A stretch of DNA of 64,000 nt from Flavobacteriales bacterium (GCA_037443205.1 JBBIOU010000012.1:1570-65569), one strand, 5' to 3'; counted from the stretch's first letter, positions 26,834 to 31,843 are shown. The notes: generated by a model not told the origin, from the letters alone. Numbers and translations: made by a program.

Positions 26834-27667
26834 ATGAATCTGAATGAATTTATTCAAGCCGCACTTGCCGAAGATGTTGGCAGCGGAGATCACACTTCGA
26901 TGGCCTGCATAAACACCAATGTTGAAAGCAGTGCTAAACTTTTGATTAAAGAAGATGGAATTATTGCCGGAATAGAAATTGCCCGCGAAATATTTAAACA
27001 GGTAGATGACAACTTGGTATTTAAACAAATAATAAATGATGGACAACAAGTTAAAAAAGGTGATATCGCATTTTATGTATCCGGCTCGCCTATCAGCATT
27101 TTAACAGCCGAAAGAGTTGTGCTCAATATTATGCAACGCATGAGCGGAATTGCCACACAAACCAACTTACTGGTAAACGAATTAAAAGGTTTACAAACCA
27201 AAATACTCGACACCCGAAAAACCACTCCTTTATTGCGTTTTATAGAAAAACAAGCCGTAAAAATTGGCGGGGGGTATAACCATAGATTTGGCCTGTATGA
27301 CATGATTTTGATAAAAGATAATCACATTGACTTTAGCGGGGGTATAAAAAAAGCCATAGAAAACACACAAGCCTATCTCTTAAATAATAATCTGAATTTA
27401 AAAATAGAAATTGAAACCAGAAACATTGACGAAGTAATGCAAGTTTTAAACATCGGTGGTGTTCACAGAATTATGCTTGATAATTATGATATTGATACAC
27501 TTGCAAAGGCTGTAAAATTAATAGGAGGAAAATACGAAACCGAAGCATCTGGCGGAATAACCCTCAATAACATTCGTCAGTATGCCGAAACCGGTGTAAA
27601 TTATATCTCTGTAGGCTCTATAACACATTCAGTAAAATGCTTAGATCTTAGTTTAAAGGCATGTTGA
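26834..27667 (+). CDS. nadC: Nicotinate-nucleotide pyrophosphorylase (quinolinate phosphoribosyltransferase)
   Basis: DTRKTTP, NHRFGL.DMILIKDNH, IMLDN and EASGGI motifs. Confidence 0.96.
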   Translation: MNLNEFIQAALAEDVGSGDHTSMACINTNVESSAKLLIKEDGIIAGIEIAREIFKQVDDNLVFKQIINDGQQVKKGDIAFYVSGSPISILTAERVVLNIMQRMSGIATQTNLLVNELKGLQTKILDTRKTTPLLRFIEKQAVKIGGGYNHRFGLYDMILIKDNHIDFSGGIKKAIENTQAYLLNNNLNLKIEIETRNIDEVMQVLNIGGVHRIMLDNYDIDTLAKAVKLIGGKYETEASGGITLNNIRQYAETGVNYISVGSITHSVKCLDLSLKAC

Positions 27668-28617
27668 AACATTTTTATCAAAAAATATTAATTAAATTTA
27701 TACACAGAACCCGAAGCATTAATTTACCGGGCAACCAGGGAGTGTCGCTCTACTCGGCCGGTTATTTCTTTATCAACGGACTTAAAAATAATCTGATTGC
27801 TCAACGCGCTGCTTCAATTACATTTAGATTTTTTTTAGCCCTTTTTCCTCTCATCATATTCTTGTTTTCAGTAGTACCCTACATACCTATAAAAAATTTT
27901 CACGAAAACATTCTTAACAATATACACAGTTTCTTTCCCGATGAAGTGTATTTATTTTTCGAAAGTTTTTTATACGACCTGATTAAAAAGAAACACTCGG
28001 TTTTACTATCGGTAGGTTTTTTGCTTACTATATATTTTTCGGCTAATGGAATTAGCGCCTTGCTGAATACCCTGAACCAAAGTAACCAACATACCGGCAA
28101 ACGAAATTTTTTTAAACAATGGCTCTGGTCTCTCACGCTGCTTATCTTGTTTTTTATACTATCTACGCTGGTAACACTGGTTTCAGGTTTTGGAACCACC
28201 ATCATCAATTATCTTTTCAACCGAGAAATAATCAGCGGTAATACAGCTTATTATTTGATTTGGACAATTAAATCTTTATTATCTTTACTGATCATGTACA
28301 TGCTAATATCTGTAATCTACAACATAGCCGATACCGGCAAAACAAAATGGAAACTTTTTACAGCCGGAGCCTTTGCAGGAACAGTATTGATACTATTGCT
28401 TAAAGAAGGTTTCTCGTTTTATGTTACACACATTGCCAATTTCAGCAAAATATACGGGCATCTGGGTGCTGCATTGGCATTTATGCTGTTTATGTATTAT
28501 CTGTTTTATCTGTTGATTATAGGATACGAATTAAACAATAGTCTTAACTCAGCTAAATTAAACTCATCAAAATACCCTAAACCATCCGCTACTAAAAACA
28601 TATCTAACCCCAGGTAA
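27661..28617 (+). CDS. YihY/BrkB family membrane protein
   Basis: RAASITFRFFLALFP, about 6 TM segments, FSKIYG.LGA and G.ELN motifs. Confidence 0.85.
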   Translation: MLKHFYQKILIKFIHRTRSINLPGNQGVSLYSAGYFFINGLKNNLIAQRAASITFRFFLALFPLIIFLFSVVPYIPIKNFHENILNNIHSFFPDEVYLFFESFLYDLIKKKHSVLLSVGFLLTIYFSANGISALLNTLNQSNQHTGKRNFFKQWLWSLTLLILFFILSTLVTLVSGFGTTIINYLFNREIISGNTAYYLIWTIKSLLSLLIMYMLISVIYNIADTGKTKWKLFTAGAFAGTVLILLLKEGFSFYVTHIANFSKIYGHLGAALAFMLFMYYLFYLLIIGYELNNSLNSAKLNSSKYPKPSATKNISNPR

Positions 28618-28618
28618 T

Positions 28619-31600
28619 ATGAAAATAAAACTCCTTCTATCCATATTATTTCAGATAATTTACCTAGCAGCAAGCCTTGGTCAATTTTACGATCCTCTGC
28701 TGCCGCCCAATACTTATCAAAGCAAAGGAAACCCACATTACTGGAAAAACCGCATACCGCATCCGGGCTATTGGCAACAAGATGTACATTATACCATCCG
28801 TGCAAATATTGACGAAACAAAACACATCATTGAGGCAGAACTTACTTTGGTTTATACCAATAATTCACCCGATGATTTAAACTATGTTTTCTTTCATTTA
28901 TATCAGGAAGCTTTTCAACCCGGCTCCTATTACGACAAACTAAGCAGGGCAAACGGCTTAAAACCAAATTATGGACGTTACGAAACCGAAGGAAAAGGTA
29001 CAGAAGTAGATTACATTGTTGTTGACGGCAAAGAATTAAAAACCGAACAAGATAATACTATCTTAAAAGTATTTTTAAATAAACCCATAGCAAGCGGAAC
29101 CAGTGAAACTTTTAAAGTTAAATTTAAAACATATTTTGACGGCAGTAATGGTGTTGGCAGGCGTTTTAAAAAATTTAATACTGCCGGATATACCCACTAC
29201 GATGGCGTACATTGGTATCCCAGAATATGTGTTTACGATCGAAAATTCGGCTGGTGTACAGACCAACACCTGGGCAAAGAATTTTATGGTGATTTCGGAT
29301 GTTATGACGTTGAACTAACCTTTTCTGATAATTACATTGTTGAAGCCACCGGTAATTTAATTAACCGGGATGAAGTACTACCGGAAGAACTAAGAAAAAA
29401 ACTCGATATAAAAAACTTTACGCAACCAATATATGAAAATGAAATAAGTGAAATTATACCCTACACACCTTCAAAAAGAAAAACATGGAAATATCACGCT
29501 GAAAATGTACATGATTTTGCCTTTACTGCCGACCCTACATACCGTATTGGCGAAGCCACCTGGAATGGAATAACCTGCATCTCCCTGGCACAGGAACACC
29601 ATGCCTGGAAATGGCAAAATGCTGCCGAATATGCAGCCAAAGTTATTCAGGTTTATTCTGAAGATTTTGGTATGTACGTATATCATAAAATAGTGGTTGC
29701 TGATGCACGTGACGGAATGGAATACCCCATGATTACACTGGACGGAGGTTATGACCCGGATTACAGAGGTTTACTGGCCCACGAAATCGGTCACAACTGG
29801 TTTTTCGGGCAGGTAGGCAATAACGAAACTTACCGCGCCTGTCTGGACGAAGGATTTACCCAATTTCTTACTGCCTGGAGCCTGCAAAAAATTGATGGTG
29901 ATACTATAATTAAATCAAGACCCGACAATTGGTACGAAAATAAATATAAAAGATATGAAACTGTACGCGAAACCAGCGTATATACACGCTATTTGTCAGA
30001 TGCAATCAAAGGAGAAGATATTTATTTAAATACACACTCGGATGATTTTCAAAGTACCGAACGCCACGGTGCAGGTTACAGGCATGTTTATTTTAAAACA
30101 GCTACAATGCTCTATAATTTGCAATATGTGTTGGGTGACGAACTATTTTTATCAGCCATGCAACATTACTTTAACCAATGGAAAATTGCACATCCCTATA
30201 TAGAAGACTTCAGAAATTCTATTATTCAATTCACTAAAGTTGACTTAAACTGGTTTTTCGATCAATGGTTCGAAACCAAAAAAAACATAGATTATGCCGT
30301 ATGTTCTGCTAAATATGGCGACACCGAAAACCAATATAAAATAAAATTCAAACGCATCGGAGAGATGCAAATGCCTATTGATTTTGCTGTAGTGGGTAAA
30401 AATGATTCCTTATATTTTTTTCATATTCCAAATACCTGGTTTGTAAAAAAAACAAATGCTGTGGTTTTACCTAAGTGGACCGGTTGGGGAAAATTAAATA
30501 CTACCTACGAAGCCACAATTACCTTACCGGCCGGCATAAAAGATGTTATTATTGACCCCAGCAACCGGCTGGCTGATGTAGATAGATTAAACAACAAACT
30601 AAGTTTCCCGGCAACATTCAATTTCGATTCGCATATTTACAACTTGCCAGATATATACAATTATGAAGTTTTTGTTAGACCTGAGCTGTGGTATAATGGT
30701 TTTGACGGAATGAAAATTGGCTTTCATGCCAATGGAAATTATATGAACTATAAACATATTTTTAGTTTAAGTGCCTGGTATAATACAGGTATGTTGCGAA
30801 GACTACCCGCTTATATACCTCAATTTGACGGAGTAAACAATCAGTTCGATCCTTTTTCGGTTGCACTAACATACAAAACAGGCACCAACAGAATTGTAGA
30901 AAAATCAAATATATTTATTGAAGGAAAAATATTAGACGGTTTAAAAGCATCGCTTTTTGGATGGGAAAAATGGAGCAGAAACAACCAATTGCGTTTTTAT
31001 GCTTATTATAAGCTGATGTTGCGCACCGATACCGCTTCTACCTACTACTTGCTTTACCCGCAGGAATGGGGAATAGCTAAATACAATACCACTATAAACC
31101 TGGGTATAGATAAAATGTACACTTATCACGGAGGAAGCGGGCATGTGAACATACATTTAAGAAGCTCGTCATTAGGCAGCGACTATCATTTTTCACAACT
31201 CACCTTTACAAGTATTCAACGCACCCGTATATGGCGTACACAACTAAATACCCGCATTTTTGCACAATATGGAACAGGCACTTCGCTACCCCGCGAGTCT
31301 GCATTGTTTGTGGCAGGTGCCAACCCCGAAGAAATGATGGAAAATAAATATATGCGCAGCATAGGATTTTTTGATTACAACTGGCAAGGATTGGGCAATA
31401 ATACCAATCACTTACAATTTGGCGGTGGCTTAAACCTGAGAGGATATGCCGGTTATCTGCTTCCCGAGCAAGATAGTTTATTTAACATCAGCTACCATTA
31501 TGCCGGAAATTCTGGAGCTTCGGTTAGCGTTGAATGGGATTTACAAAAAATAATTCGCTGGAAACCGCGCAAATTAAGCAACTATCTTGGCTTAGATGTT

Positions 31601-31843
31601 TATGTATTTACTGATGCAGGTATACTAAATAAAGAAATAAACGGAAACAGACTGAATTTTGCATCATTTAGAGTTGATGCAGGTATAGGCACCGCACTTA
31701 GCATTAAAAAATTCGGACCGCTAACAAATATTAAACCGCTGGTGATACGATTTGATATGCCATTATTTTTAAACAGATTGCCTTATCTGCAAGATAACTA
31801 CTTTGCCTTTAGATGGTTATTGGGAATAAGCAGAAGTTTTTAG
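28619..31843 (+). CDS. M1 family zinc aminopeptidase fused to a C-terminal Omp85-like beta-barrel
   Basis: Signal peptide, YWQQ, GMEYP and HEIGH-x18-E motifs. The C-terminal region has GGGLNLRGY, YVFTDAG, RVDAGIG and IRFD, and ends in Phe. The peptidase call is strong; the barrel call is moderate. Confidence 0.85.
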   Translation: MKIKLLLSILFQIIYLAASLGQFYDPLLPPNTYQSKGNPHYWKNRIPHPGYWQQDVHYTIRANIDETKHIIEAELTLVYTNNSPDDLNYVFFHLYQEAFQPGSYYDKLSRANGLKPNYGRYETEGKGTEVDYIVVDGKELKTEQDNTILKVFLNKPIASGTSETFKVKFKTYFDGSNGVGRRFKKFNTAGYTHYDGVHWYPRICVYDRKFGWCTDQHLGKEFYGDFGCYDVELTFSDNYIVEATGNLINRDEVLPEELRKKLDIKNFTQPIYENEISEIIPYTPSKRKTWKYHAENVHDFAFTADPTYRIGEATWNGITCISLAQEHHAWKWQNAAEYAAKVIQVYSEDFGMYVYHKIVVADARDGMEYPMITLDGGYDPDYRGLLAHEIGHNWFFGQVGNNETYRACLDEGFTQFLTAWSLQKIDGDTIIKSRPDNWYENKYKRYETVRETSVYTRYLSDAIKGEDIYLNTHSDDFQSTERHGAGYRHVYFKTATMLYNLQYVLGDELFLSAMQHYFNQWKIAHPYIEDFRNSIIQFTKVDLNWFFDQWFETKKNIDYAVCSAKYGDTENQYKIKFKRIGEMQMPIDFAVVGKNDSLYFFHIPNTWFVKKTNAVVLPKWTGWGKLNTTYEATITLPAGIKDVIIDPSNRLADVDRLNNKLSFPATFNFDSHIYNLPDIYNYEVFVRPELWYNGFDGMKIGFHANGNYMNYKHIFSLSAWYNTGMLRRLPAYIPQFDGVNNQFDPFSVALTYKTGTNRIVEKSNIFIEGKILDGLKASLFGWEKWSRNNQLRFYAYYKLMLRTDTASTYYLLYPQEWGIAKYNTTINLGIDKMYTYHGGSGHVNIHLRSSSLGSDYHFSQLTFTSIQRTRIWRTQLNTRIFAQYGTGTSLPRESALFVAGANPEEMMENKYMRSIGFFDYNWQGLGNNTNHLQFGGGLNLRGYAGYLLPEQDSLFNISYHYAGNSGASVSVEWDLQKIIRWKPRKLSNYLGLDVYVFTDAGILNKEINGNRLNFASFRVDAGIGTALSIKKFGPLTNIKPLVIRFDMPLFLNRLPYLQDNYFAFRWLLGISRSF

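Follow-up and report, generated by a model that had tools for sequence, protein, structure and literature searches.

The reading frame at 28619..31843 of the analysed stretch of DNA (hereafter the window, 64,000 nucleotides from a Flavobacteriales bacterium) raises the question of whether a zinc peptidase of the M1 family and an outer membrane beta-barrel are joined in one polypeptide and, if so, on which side of the membrane the enzyme is held and what the barrel contributes. The Omp85 proteins are the core of outer membrane biogenesis, and their known partners other than POTRA domains are few. The original prediction, made from the sequence, was of an M1 peptidase fused to an Omp85-type barrel.

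Reading Frame, Export Signal and Gene Neighborhood

The frame is open over 1074 codons, and a chance frame is excluded by the 1682 proteins matching its C-terminal 405 residues at E <= 0.001, with the peptidase domain PF01433 present in 120 of the 120 proteins among the matches listed. The features of this part of the window are as follows:

26834..27667, + strand: nadC-like gene, overlapping the start of the yihY-type gene
27661..28617, + strand: upstream gene for a YihY/BrkB-family inner-membrane protein (PF03631, 167.5 bits; TIGR00765)
28619..31843, + strand: whole reading frame of the M1 peptidase-Omp85 barrel fusion (P0001), 1074 amino acids plus stop
28619..28681, + strand: putative Sec/SPI-type signal peptide, residues 1-21, without a lipobox Cys (read from the sequence; modelled helix 2-18)
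28682-28684, + strand: Gln22, directly after the signal peptide

The stop of the yihY-type gene lies 1 nt upstream of the ATG of the fusion, and a YihY/BrkB neighbor recurs at 5 of the 17 orthologous loci, as well as upstream of a barrel-only form in the lineage G013. The gene preceding it we take to be nadC-like from the reading of its sequence and from its syntenic counterparts, which are 50-68% identical. No BAM or TAM partner gene linked to the fusion was found in the window and the orthologous loci.

Cleavage of the signal peptide is inferred before Gln22 from the sequence, with Gln standing in the aligned column of 29 of 36 homologues. Given this Gln, the mature N-terminus is probably pyroglutamate, which would shield the fusion from aminopeptidases, its own activity included. 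Most Sec/SPI substrates of Bacteroidota reportedly begin with this residue (PMC5837995, PMC10653852).

The M1 Peptidase Part

Residues ~22-645 are domains I-III of an M1 peptidase with the catalytic residues complete, in which the following features were distinguished:

28781..29326, + strand: M1 domain I, an N-terminal beta-sandwich, residues ~55-236 (full-length model; Foldseek alignments)
29477..30274, + strand: catalytic (thermolysin-like) domain, residues ~287-552 (PF01433 at residues 385-550)
29714..29728, + strand: GMEYP, residues 366-370, replacing the GxMEN exopeptidase motif (Glu retained, Asn changed to Tyr)
29780..29794, + strand: HEIGH zinc-binding motif, H388/E389/H392, aligned with HEFFH of a solved aminopeptidase N
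29849..29851, + strand: E411, third zinc ligand (HExxH-X18-E); LDEGFT aligns with LKEGLT of 5zi5
30089..30091, + strand: Y491, candidate transition-state tyrosine; VYFKTA aligns with AYEKSA of aminopeptidase N 5zi5
30293..30553, + strand: counterpart of M1 domain III, a small all-beta domain at residues 559-645 and not of the POTRA type (full-length model)
30554..30661, + strand: ordered, conserved linker, residues 646-681, packing on the catalytic domain (pLDDT ~89-93)

An intact N-terminal M1 peptidase, as predicted, was recovered both by PF01433 (52.8 bits; cut-off 27.7) and by Foldseek with the full-length model, where IRAP was the best match (E 2.7e-22), followed by ERAP1 and ERAP2, with ~650-700 columns aligned; in the profile search of PDB sequences, M1 enzymes were the only matches. 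The signal peptide, GMEYP, HEIGH and the downstream Glu all lie where they had been placed. In the alignment of 36 sequences, H388, E389, H392, E411, Y491 and E368 are each present in 36/36, the column of Y491 being presumably the catalytic Tyr position of M1 enzymes, so that the M1 part is apparently catalytically competent as judged from its sequence. The G, E, Y and P of GMEYP are likewise 36/36 and its M is 35/36, and a paralogue in the same genome also carries GGMEYP. Whether the enzyme acts as an aminopeptidase rather than an endopeptidase is uncertain because the exopeptidase motif reads GMEY and not GxMEN.

Domains I-III, HExxH-X18-E, the Glu of GxMEN and the catalytic Tyr are shared with such M1 aminopeptidases as PepN, ERAP1/2, IRAP and LTA4H, from which the fusion differs by GMEYP in place of GxMEN, by export through a signal peptide, and by a membrane barrel where they have the helical domain IV. 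In those enzymes, domain IV forms a cap over the substrate cavity. The all-beta domain at residues 559-645 consists of six strands without a helix pair, and the sequence alignment runs on through it into residues 403-500 of 5zi5. No ERAP1_C-like domain IV was matched by Pfam, and domain III is followed by the linker and the barrel, which occupies the position normal for domain IV. The linker has the invariant residues D646, R650, L651, A652, D653 and D670, and its end contacts the catalytic domain (661-682 with 435-465) in a prediction in which the protein was divided into two chains.

The C-Terminal Barrel and Its Relationships

The change to alternating amphipathic strands had been placed at ~30660 (residue ~681), in agreement with the first modelled barrel strand, which starts at 682/683. 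The barrel comprises the following features:

30662..31840, + strand: 16-strand Omp85-superfamily beta-barrel, residues 682-1074 (AF2, Foldseek, VIA-align, hhalign)
31286..31513, + strand: loop 6 equivalent, residues 890-965, 76 amino acids between strands 11 and 12 (AF2 models)
31436..31447, + strand: LRGY, residues 940-943, the loop-6 'lid-lock' motif (R941 and Y943 in 36/36)
31607..31621, + strand: FTDAG, residues 997-1001, an FxDxG motif on strand 13 (within the modelled strand 990-1004)
31838..31840, + strand: C-terminal Phe1074, a beta-signal-type end after G1069 in the last strand (from the sequence)

Sixteen strands were obtained both in the barrel-only AF2 model (pLDDT 83.8, pTM 0.82) and in the full-length one (pTM 0.80, linker ordered), and 16 of the 16 modelled strands alternate a hydrophobic face (mean Kyte-Doolittle +1.89) with a polar face (-1.30), the latter directed to the lumen. 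Comparison with the BamA and TamA barrels by AlphaFold and Foldseek, which had been proposed as a check, thus returned an Omp85-type fold. The motifs follow one another in the order originally read, namely RPELWYNGFDGMKIG, SLPRESALFVAG, GGGLNLRGY, GASVSVE, YVFTDAG, RVDAGIG, IRFD and the C-terminal FRWLLGISRSF, with HEIGH (29780-29794) and LRGY (31436-31447) at exactly the predicted positions. The lid-lock of Omp85 proteins is described as (V/L/M)RG(F/Y/W) in loop 6 together with FxDxG on strand 13 (PMC11358297, PMC12611786), and the BamA of F. johnsoniae is reported to have the identical four letters LRGY at L779-Y782 (PMC12611786). In the fusion family, F997, D999, G1001 and F1074 are each 36/36 and G1069 is 33/36. 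Loop 6 is modelled with pLDDT ~53-57 (residues 901-950) in the full-length model versus 73-95 in the barrel-only model.

It is highly improbable that the C-terminal domain is an unrelated porin-like barrel of 16-18 strands whose likeness to Omp85 is convergent, in spite of the searches with PF01103 and of PDB sequences missing the barrel and of Foldseek TM-scores of only ~0.45-0.5. In that same Foldseek search, TamA, BamA and Sam50 lead with E ~2e-8, and a VIA-align search of 48,161 solved chains ranks 18 Omp85/TpsB entries first (BamA, Sam50, TamA, FhaC, Toc75 or CdiB; Z 15.6-19.9, rmsd 4.2-7.0 over 273-309 aligned residues), with a gap to the next entry, a sucrose porin and the best of the porins, at Z 12.8. 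The profile of 193 barrel sequences was aligned by hhalign with seven TamL barrels (7/7 of them NF052279 TamL) over 326 columns with P 5.9e-5, compared with P 0.21 and 0.35 for the reversed controls, a minimum of 0.036 among 20 column shuffles, and 9.8e-7 for TamL against BamA as the positive control; the alignment of the same profile with BamA barrels was not significant (P 0.097). Convergence is further opposed by the two family motifs at their correct structural positions, by an orthologue scoring 23.1 bits on PF01103 (E 7.8e-5; cut-off 24), and by the nearest ESM Atlas cluster (score 0.97), which carries the name 'Bacterial surface antigen (D15)'. The equivalence of the motifs rests on their position in the model and not on the alignment, because hhalign leaves LRGY in a gap and sets the RG-aromatic motif of TamL opposite LFVAGANPEE.

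The Pfam Omp85 model, PF01103, had also been proposed as a test of the barrel, and here the fusion stayed unmatched by hmmscan at E <= 10 and was missed in the search of its own genome, though four other Omp85 genes were recovered there; since PF01103 misses it, the barrel is regarded as a hidden, diverged member of the superfamily, detectable only by fold and by profile-profile comparison. An enzyme-Omp85 fusion lacking both POTRA and a T9SS CTD had been foreseen, and it is borne out by the 16-strand barrel and by a Pfam scan of the protein without a match to POTRA, the pre-barrel segment being the all-beta domain and the linker, or to the ~80-residue beta-sandwich of the CTD. Cargo of the T9SS was rejected on the same absence of a CTD match and on the C-terminus, which is the last barrel strand and ends in Phe. 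A classical (type Va) autotransporter, with a 12-strand barrel and an alpha-helical linker in its pore, was rejected as well on account of the 16 strands and of the linker lying outside the barrel.

Comparison with Known Omp85 Fusions

The nearest analogues by architecture are the PlpD/FplA-type ('type Vd') proteins, in which a single polypeptide likewise has an enzyme ahead of a 16-strand Omp85 barrel at its C-terminus. The enzyme of PlpD is a patatin lipase, separated from the barrel by a POTRA domain (PMC4104836). PlpD is a homodimer, and its barrel is recognizable as Omp85 by sequence, unlike that of the fusion, in which neither patatin nor POTRA was matched by Pfam and an M1 fold stands in that position. 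POTRA-less barrels resembling the fusion in this respect were described by Heinz and Lithgow in 2014 as the 'noNterm', 'WD40' and 'Metallo' subfamilies, reported there as accepted Omp85 members, some with other N-terminal domains, that are expanded in Bacteroidetes (PMC4104836). An M1 domain occurs in 0 of the 10 subfamilies listed in that work, the word 'peptidase' appears 0 times in its main text, and the 'Metallo' domain is PF00149, unlike the M1 domain of the fusion (PMC4104836). Their set was built on barrel sequence similarity and would therefore miss the barrel of the fusion.

By profile comparison, the closest relatives of the barrel are TamL/TamA, with TamA also among the top structural matches. 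TamL is reported as a lipoprotein with POTRA domains and with TamB as a partner (10.1101/2024.10.17.618404), whereas the fusion has a plain signal peptide and, instead of POTRA, an enzyme.

Predicted Orientation and Docking of the Peptidase

In the modelled barrel, the loops of the same parity as loop 6 comprise 23, 19, 76, 13 and 15 residues, and the turns of the opposite, periplasmic parity comprise 3, 7, 5, 2, 2, 15 and 11. The two-chain prediction of residues 287-660 against 661-1074 gave a score of 0.63, compared with 0.00 for the best of 3 controls; among solved complexes 58 of 80 attain 0.63, and among mismatched pairs 2 of 110. The contacts agreed between runs to at least 98%, with a partner pLDDT of at least 82. 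The contacts by the cut (655-664) are trivial because both chains are halves of one polypeptide, and residues left unnamed by this method are uncertain rather than free. The contacts named on the barrel side comprise the linker (661-682) together with residues 708-712, 755-762 and 1033-1034, the latter being the turns of strands 2-3, 4-5 and 14-15, all of periplasmic parity, and none of the named contacts belongs to a loop of loop-6 parity. These turns adjoin the seam of strands 1 and 16 on both its sides (strands 2-5 and 14-15). On the enzyme side, the contacts are the helices 435-465 and not the zinc site, and they meet rim turns rather than the lumen.

Accommodation of the peptidase on the periplasmic side of the outer membrane is most likely from these models. 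Of the roles suggested originally, a tether at the outer membrane fits best, and display on the surface is less likely because the predicted contacts are with periplasmic-parity turns and because a periplasmic location, the same as that suggested for the fusion, is now reported for the enzyme of PlpD (PMC11116518). Self-secretion of the type V kind, with the barrel moving the M1 domain across the outer membrane, to be displayed or released there and to digest external peptides, is decidedly unlikely. It would follow the original type Vd model of PlpD, where the Omp85 barrel is preceded by an enzyme as its 'passenger' (PMC4104836), a precedent since revised as stated. It would also suit the feeding habit of Bacteroidota, which use external proteins as food. 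However, POTRA is absent, the linker is neither disordered nor a helical translocation element but ordered, conserved and packed on the enzyme, whose predicted contacts involve periplasmic-parity turns only, and a zinc enzyme of ~620 residues would be an atypical passenger; the protein lacks a T9SS tail as well as an export signal of the lipoprotein kind. The LRGY-bearing loop 6 is moreover retained, and in Omp85 proteins this loop is reported to fill the lumen (PMC12611786).

The position of the barrel in place of domain IV, the polar lumen-facing strand faces and the rigid packing of the domains predicted by the full-length model (pTM 0.80) and by the two-chain run would agree with a peptide channel that delivers incoming peptides to the active site and so couples uptake to trimming. 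We consider this role very unlikely, since the Omp85 lumens are shut by loop 6 and the lid-lock, both conserved here, and the named contacts lead from rim turns to helices 435-465 rather than from the lumen to the zinc site. The known route of peptide import in Bacteroidota is through TonB-dependent transporters of the SusC/RagA type.

Proposed Function

What computation establishes is the two folds, their motifs and how well these are conserved, the lack of POTRA, and the docking as a prediction. The reading that we favor, and consider fairly probable, is that of a Sec-exported M1 aminopeptidase held in the periplasm by a POTRA-less Omp85 barrel and trimming peptides there. In this mechanism, the C-terminal 393 residues of a single exported polypeptide would form the 16-strand barrel, inserted into the outer membrane presumably by BAM via the C-terminal Phe signal, and the N-terminal ~620 residues would be a zinc aminopeptidase of domains I-III, with the barrel replacing domain IV. 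The peptidase would be fixed rigidly at the periplasmic face of the barrel, beneath the seam of strands 1 and 16, and would remove N-terminal residues from peptides or unfolded polypeptides arriving at the inner face of the outer membrane, of which oligopeptides taken in for nutrition may be the likeliest substrates. We infer the location, the enzymatic activity and the substrates, together with any role of the barrel beyond anchoring.

Such a role is suggested by the lineage G013, in which the barrel is retained without the peptidase, and by stand-alone barrels of ~400-435 amino acids in other classes; because of these forms, the barrel may do more than anchor and would have a function of its own. 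One rival version is an Omp85 linked to assembly or quality control, where the gate would capture unfolded outer membrane proteins bearing a beta-signal at the strand 1/16 seam, and clients that are stalled or mistargeted would be degraded or trimmed by the M1 module, which sits where BamA has POTRA5. R941, D999, G1069 (33/36) and the strand-1 signature are as strictly conserved as the catalytic site, the predicted contacts of the catalytic domain flank the seam, and the TamL barrels are the closest sequence relatives. A similar place is held by BepA at the BAM complex, an endoprotease of family M48 that has a TPR domain and is a separate polypeptide; it resembles the fusion in the way of working only, as a zinc protease under an Omp85 barrel in the periplasm, with no homology between the two. 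Nevertheless, quality control is rather unlikely to be the function: no linked BAM or TAM partner gene was found in the window and the orthologous loci, and M1 enzymes are chiefly aminopeptidases, which need a free N-terminus and remove residues singly, such stepwise action being a poor means to clear a stalled barrel protein. The N-terminal pyroglutamate reported for Sec/SPI substrates (PMC5837995, PMC10653852) should also block an M1 aminopeptidase. In favor of quality control, such a periplasmic role was suggested by Heinz and Lithgow for the 'Metallo' Omp85 group (PMC4104836).

With a comparably low probability, the POTRA arm may have been replaced by a peptidase in what would be an eleventh subfamily of Omp85, with the M1 module docked beneath the strand 1/16 seam, the barrel substituting for domain IV, and the Omp85 gate coupled to N-terminal proteolysis, making the fusion a substrate-handling machine and not a mere anchor. 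If this were true, the gate would act by client capture at the seam or by passage through the barrel, in the service of envelope-protein quality control or of peptide processing at the outer membrane, and it would operate without the enzyme in the barrel-only form of G013 and in the other classes, where the barrel stands alone.

Distribution and Significance

The sampling covered 30 other genomes, each from a different family of the class, and full-length orthologues of the fusion were found in 17 of them. Far from being rare, the architecture is common, and it is conserved in Bacteroidota. The public names of the homologues are 'M1 family metallopeptidase', 'aminopeptidase N' or 'hypothetical protein' only, thus mentioning the peptidase at most, and no paper describing an M1 peptidase-Omp85 barrel fusion was found in the literature searched, within which the class stands as uncharacterized, as had been supposed. 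Thousands of proteins called 'aminopeptidase N' would accordingly be integral outer membrane proteins in fact, and the inventories of Omp85 proteins in Bacteroidota would be incomplete, as the Pfam Omp85 model fails to detect the barrel. The reuse of the Omp85 scaffold for placing an enzyme on the inner side of the outer membrane would match the revised view of PlpD. Bacteroidota live on imported peptides and protect the N-termini of their exported proteins by pyroglutamate, and in such a phylum an aminopeptidase tethered there would be a concrete element of periplasmic peptide processing. For the role of the barrel itself, a natural control is available in the barrel-only relatives.

The genome of the fusion also contains two Omp85 genes of the noNterm type (L003 and L004). 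In related genomes, a further family of ~1070 amino acids was observed, with weak matches to Peptidase_MA_2 and with frames that match PF01103; PD40-type matches were present in one of the two proteins of this family that were scanned.

Architecture of the fusion protein

A single uninterrupted open reading frame (ORF) of 1074 codons and a stop is present at 28619..31843 of the forward strand, and the sequence motifs on which the original prediction of a fusion between an M1 aminopeptidase and an Omp85-type barrel was built are all found in it, in the order and at the coordinates then given, such as HEIGH (residues 388-392, 29780-29794) and LRGY (residues 940-943, 31436-31447). The onset of amphipathic strands, placed near 30660, corresponds to the first modelled barrel strand (residue 682/683). 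Since, of 6282 candidates, 1682 are matched at E <= 0.001 by the C-terminal 405 residues alone, the ORF is not a chance frame. The 120 matches listed are mostly of 1056-1222 aa, besides some shorter or partial ones, and PF01433 (Peptidase_M1) is the sole precomputed Pfam domain in each of them. In an all-against-library HMMER search, residues 661-1074 matched 350 cluster representatives at E <= 0.001, including 113 at E <= 1e-30. The public names of the fusion are "M1 family metallopeptidase", "aminopeptidase N" and "hypothetical protein", and the named members all come from metagenome-assembled genomes.

The full-length AF2 model, calculated with the 36-row family alignment (pLDDT 83.0, pTM 0.80), consists of the following elements.

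Elements of the full-length AF2 model of the fusion (protein residues)
N-terminus, signal-peptide helix (first element)
~55-236, beta-sandwich
~287-552, thermolysin-like catalytic domain
559-645, small all-beta domain
646-681, ordered linker, followed by the barrel

Pfam recognized in the fusion Peptidase_M1 alone (residues 385-550, 52.8 bits, cut-off 27.7), and NCBIfam gave weak sub-threshold matches to the aminopeptidase N and LTA4 hydrolase models, while the Foldseek search with the full-length model retrieved IRAP, ERAP1 and ERAP2 (E 2.7e-22 and weaker, ~650-700 alignment columns). In the sequence alignment to the solved aminopeptidase N 5zi5, HEIGHNWF...LDEGFT stands opposite HEFFHYWS...LKEGLT and VYFKTA opposite AYEKSA, and the alignment extends into 5zi5 residues 403-500; the fusion segment 559-645 aligned there is presumably M1 domain III in the usual domain numbering. 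The fusion lacks the helical domain IV found in other M1 enzymes, and the barrel occupies its place. The residues H388, E389, H392, E411, Y491 and E368 are each conserved in all 36 sequences of the family alignment. The exopeptidase motif is G-M-E-Y-P, not GxMEN, its Tyr being invariant in the same alignment and common to the M1 paralogue of the own genome.

The proposed absence of POTRA domains and of a type IX secretion (T9SS) C-terminal domain holds. No POTRA family was matched by Pfam in the fusion, and in the AF2 model the catalytic domain and the barrel are separated by a single all-beta domain of six strands; the POTRA order is beta-alpha-alpha-beta-beta. The chain terminates at the last barrel strand and its Phe and, therefore, leaves no room for a T9SS C-terminal domain. 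Directly after the signal peptide, which has no lipobox cysteine, stands Gln22 (Gln in 29 of the 36 aligned sequences), consistent with the "Q-rule" described for the Bacteroidetes signal peptidase I substrates (PMC5837995, PMC10653852).

Relationship of the barrel to the Omp85 superfamily

Residues 661-1074 folded alone with the same 36-row alignment (pLDDT 83.8, pTM 0.82) gave a barrel of 16 strands, all of which alternate a hydrophobic face (mean Kyte-Doolittle +1.89) with a polar one (-1.30), and with a single very long connection of 76 residues between strands 11 and 12. The best Foldseek matches in the PDB were TamA, BamA and Sam50 (E ~2e-8), at a TM of only 0.45-0.5. In the VIA-align search against 48,161 representative chains, which is independent of Foldseek, the best 18 entries were all Omp85/TpsB proteins, namely BamA of five organisms, Sam50, TamA, FhaC, Toc75 and CdiB (Z 15.6-19.9, 273-309 aligned residues, rmsd 4.2-7.0). 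The next entry, a sucrose porin, reached Z 12.8. A convergent barrel unrelated to Omp85 is very improbable, given this gap to the Z of at least 15.6 of the best 18.

In the model, LRGY lies within the loop between strands 11 and 12 and F997-x-D999-x-G1001 within strand 13, the same structural places as those given for the (L/M)RG(W/Y) and FxDxG "lid-lock" motifs of Omp85 proteins in PMC11358297; an identical LRGY is given for BamA of F. johnsoniae (PMC12611786). All 36 aligned sequences have R941, Y943, F997, D999, G1001 and the terminal F1074.

The sequence relationship is distant. The suggested check by PF01103 (Pfam Omp85) failed for the fusion: no Omp85 family was matched, even at E <= 10, when the whole protein and its C-terminal 414 residues were scanned with Pfam and NCBIfam, and the PF01103 search of the own genome at the same threshold recovered the four other Omp85 genes but not the fusion. 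The family profile (alignment A2) found only M1 enzymes among the PDB sequences; its full-length columns compared by hhalign with single Omp85 proteins of the own genome were not significant (probabilities 1.1 and 1.6), and the barrel profile in hmmsearch against six-frame ORFs of this genome gave no paralogue below E 0.025. With the shallow barrel profile of 36 sequences against 27 mixed BamA/TamL barrels, hhalign gave only a local match at strands 13-14 (P 0.009). The 193-sequence barrel profile gave no significant match to BamA barrels alone (P 0.097), and P 5.9e-5 over 326 columns to seven TamL barrels, taken from other families of the class and all above the cut-off of NF052279 (TamL). 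In the controls of the TamL comparison, the reversed profiles gave P 0.21 and 0.35 and none of 20 column-shuffled templates fell below P 0.036; the positive control, TamL against BamA with these same small profiles, gave P 9.8e-7. The orthologue from one of the sampled genomes (G026) reached 23.1 bits on PF01103 (E 7.8e-5), just below the 24-bit cut-off. By language-model features, the nearest ESM Atlas cluster is "Bacterial surface antigen (D15) domain-containing protein" (0.97, 198 shared features), and a cluster with PF01103 in 38% of its members is at 0.92.

The fold, the motif position and the profile-profile comparison, not a curated Pfam model, lead to the conclusion that the barrel belongs to the Omp85 superfamily, from which it has strongly diverged. 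The fusion is real: an enzyme-Omp85 protein with an M1 peptidase fold and a 16-strand barrel, without POTRA, the barrel being too diverged for Pfam, which supports the architecture originally predicted.

The hhalign alignment sets the RG-aromatic motif of TamL opposite LFVAGANPEE and leaves LRGY in a gap; therefore, the equivalence of LRGY rests on its place in the model, and the barrel family seems, from these sequences, to have a split or duplicated loop-6 signature. Loop 6 (31286-31513) holds two Omp85-like "F-x-x-G-G" stretches ~40 residues apart, LFVAGANPEE and QFGGGLNLRGY; RGY occurs only in the second, and it is the first that hhalign pairs with the TamL motif. Loop 6 may include an internal duplication or insertion.

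Distribution, gene context and described relatives

The barrel was used as a query against 30 further genomes, each from a different family of the same class, and 19 of them had a match. Seventeen of these are frames of 1064-1150 aa collinear with nearly the whole fusion by blastp; one of the 19 is truncated by a contig end. In the window the fusion is preceded by two genes.

Genes upstream of the fusion
26834..27667 (+), nadC-like gene; 7-nt overlap with the next gene
27661..28617 (+), YihY/BrkB-family inner-membrane protein gene (PF03631, 167.5 bits; TIGR00765); 1-nt gap to the fusion

The downstream genes are convergent to the fusion. The order nadC-yihY-fusion occurs in the window, in 5 of the 17 fused loci (of different families) and in the genome G013; one further fused locus has nadC alone, and the ~1.5 kb upstream of the remaining 10 of the 17 contain neither gene. 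Such occurrence is too patchy to suggest a functional link, and the order is read as inherited and not as evidence of a common function.

The G013 gene located behind the same nadC and yihY (L056:1719-3041, G013:C2) encodes a barrel-only orthologue of 441 aa, which has a signal peptide of its own but lacks the peptidase and is 36% identical to fusion residues 678-1074. In a quick IQ-TREE tree it is placed inside the fused clade (SH-aLRT 100 for this clade, only 80-83 for the enclosing forks). This place and the shared context agree with the peptidase having been lost secondarily. A few kb downstream, the barrel-only gene is followed by a POTRA-type Omp85 gene and by BamA.

A species-weighted sample covered 151 genomes of the phylum; the strong full-length form was found there only in the own genome and one other, and 13 genomes, mostly of one family of another class, contain stand-alone frames of 403-435 aa with 21-29% identity, matched over nearly the whole barrel in 11 cases and over the C-terminal half only in two. 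Six of the stand-alone genes encode the signature motifs of the barrel family, PDLWYN..DG at strand 1, NLRGY, F/Y-x-D-x-G, ADAG-G and a terminal aromatic residue, among them the following.

Stand-alone barrels from the other class of the phylum (399-426 aa)
L075:1000-2232
L078:839-2116
L080:762-1958

No Pfam family was matched in these six stand-alone proteins, which form a separate clade in the same tree (SH-aLRT 100). The barrel family is, therefore, older and wider than the fusion and can occur without the peptidase.

The 2014 census of the superfamily distinguished ten subfamilies: BamA, TamA, BamA-like, Lipo, patatin-like, WD40, Metallo (PF00149), noNterm, FhaC and Hmw1B (PMC4104836). There is no M1 class among them, and "peptidase" occurs 0 times in the main text, while the supplementary tables might list rare architectures. 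Judged from sequence, the stand-alone proteins are an unannotated, putatively "noNterm"-like Omp85 clade. Full-text literature searches for Omp85 with aminopeptidase or M1 terms retrieved no paper describing an M1-Omp85 fusion; the one preprint containing both "Omp85" and a "Peptidase_M1..." word refers to POTRA-Omp85 and, in another context, to Peptidase_M10/M17, but to no fusion.

A further family of ~1070-aa frames with a C-terminal PF01103 match in the genome search (L052:609-3818 in G010, L054:512-3733 in G026, also L051 and L055) was rejected as orthologous to the fusion. The Pfam scan gave weak sub-cut-off Peptidase_MA_2 in both L052 and L054, and weak beta-propeller/PD40 in L054 only; hmmscan of the whole proteins missed PF01103, despite the genome-search match. 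This family is probably the "WD40" Omp85 group.

Predicted orientation and function

By strand parity, the long loops of 23, 19, 76 (loop 6), 13 and 15 residues are all on one side of the barrel, and the short turns of 3, 7, 5, 2 and 2 residues, besides two longer ones of 15 and 11, on the opposite side. Strand 1 has its N-terminal end on this turn side, which in Omp85 proteins is periplasmic. The fusion was cut at 660|661 and its parts were given to a complex predictor as separate chains. Docking was supported by a score of 0.63, which is the model's own confidence, against 0.00 for the best of 3 controls; 58 of 80 solved complexes attain this mark, as do 2 of 110 mismatched pairs, counts that are only rough with an own alignment. 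Contacts agreed between runs by at least 98%, with a partner pLDDT of at least 82. As we know of no similar complex among the solved structures, a pass from the predictor's memory is unlikely.

In the enzyme chain, the predicted interface comprises residues 435-465, which form two helices following that of E411, as well as 561-564, 642-649 and 655-660; in the barrel chain, it comprises the linker 661-682 and three patches at 708-712, 755-762 and 1033-1034. The chains being halves of one polypeptide, contacts beside the cut are trivial, and residues outside the interface are to be taken as uncertain, not free. These patches correspond to the 2-3, 4-5 and 14-15 turns of the barrel in the full-length model, all of periplasmic parity and flanking the strand 1/16 seam on both sides, and no loop of loop-6 parity is named in the predicted interface. 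Together with the single-chain model (pTM 0.80), in which the linker is ordered and conserved, the docking supports an enzyme that would be held in place beneath the barrel and not one that waits as a passenger to be exported. The most likely mechanism, which we infer with moderate confidence, is that of a predicted aminopeptidase which the barrel tethers to the outer membrane on its periplasmic side. Display of the M1 peptidase on the cell surface is quite unlikely, considering the predicted contacts only at turns of periplasmic parity and the ordered, conserved linker; peptide uptake through the barrel coupled to trimming is less likely still, and a proteolytic quality-control Omp85 is an unlikely, though conceivable, function. 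The closest precedent, PlpD, points in this direction too: its patatin domain was long believed to be a secreted one, but it "resides exclusively in the periplasm" as stated in PMC11116518.

Other barrels of the own genome

The four other Omp85 genes of the own genome are BamA (TIGR03303, 325 bits), TamL (NF052279, 581 bits) and two short POTRA-less ones.

Short POTRA-less Omp85 genes
L003, G000:C9:87904-88449, 377 aa
L004, G000:C2:31621-32346, 362 aa

Outside the window the genome encodes a second M1 peptidase (L006:1390-4548, G000:C1, 1052 aa, PF01433 68.9 bits), in which GGMEYP, HEVGH and F-I-D-I-G are present, without LRGY and the terminal Phe. Its C-terminal ~400 residues are collinear with the barrel family (hhalign P 0.0013, 328 columns), and the protein may be a degenerate sister of the fusion, a type to which four ~1000-1100-aa frames of the 151-genome sample, matched in the first barrel strands only, may also belong. 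Counting the fusion and the degenerate paralogue, the genome of 2.96 Mb has five or six Omp85-type barrels.
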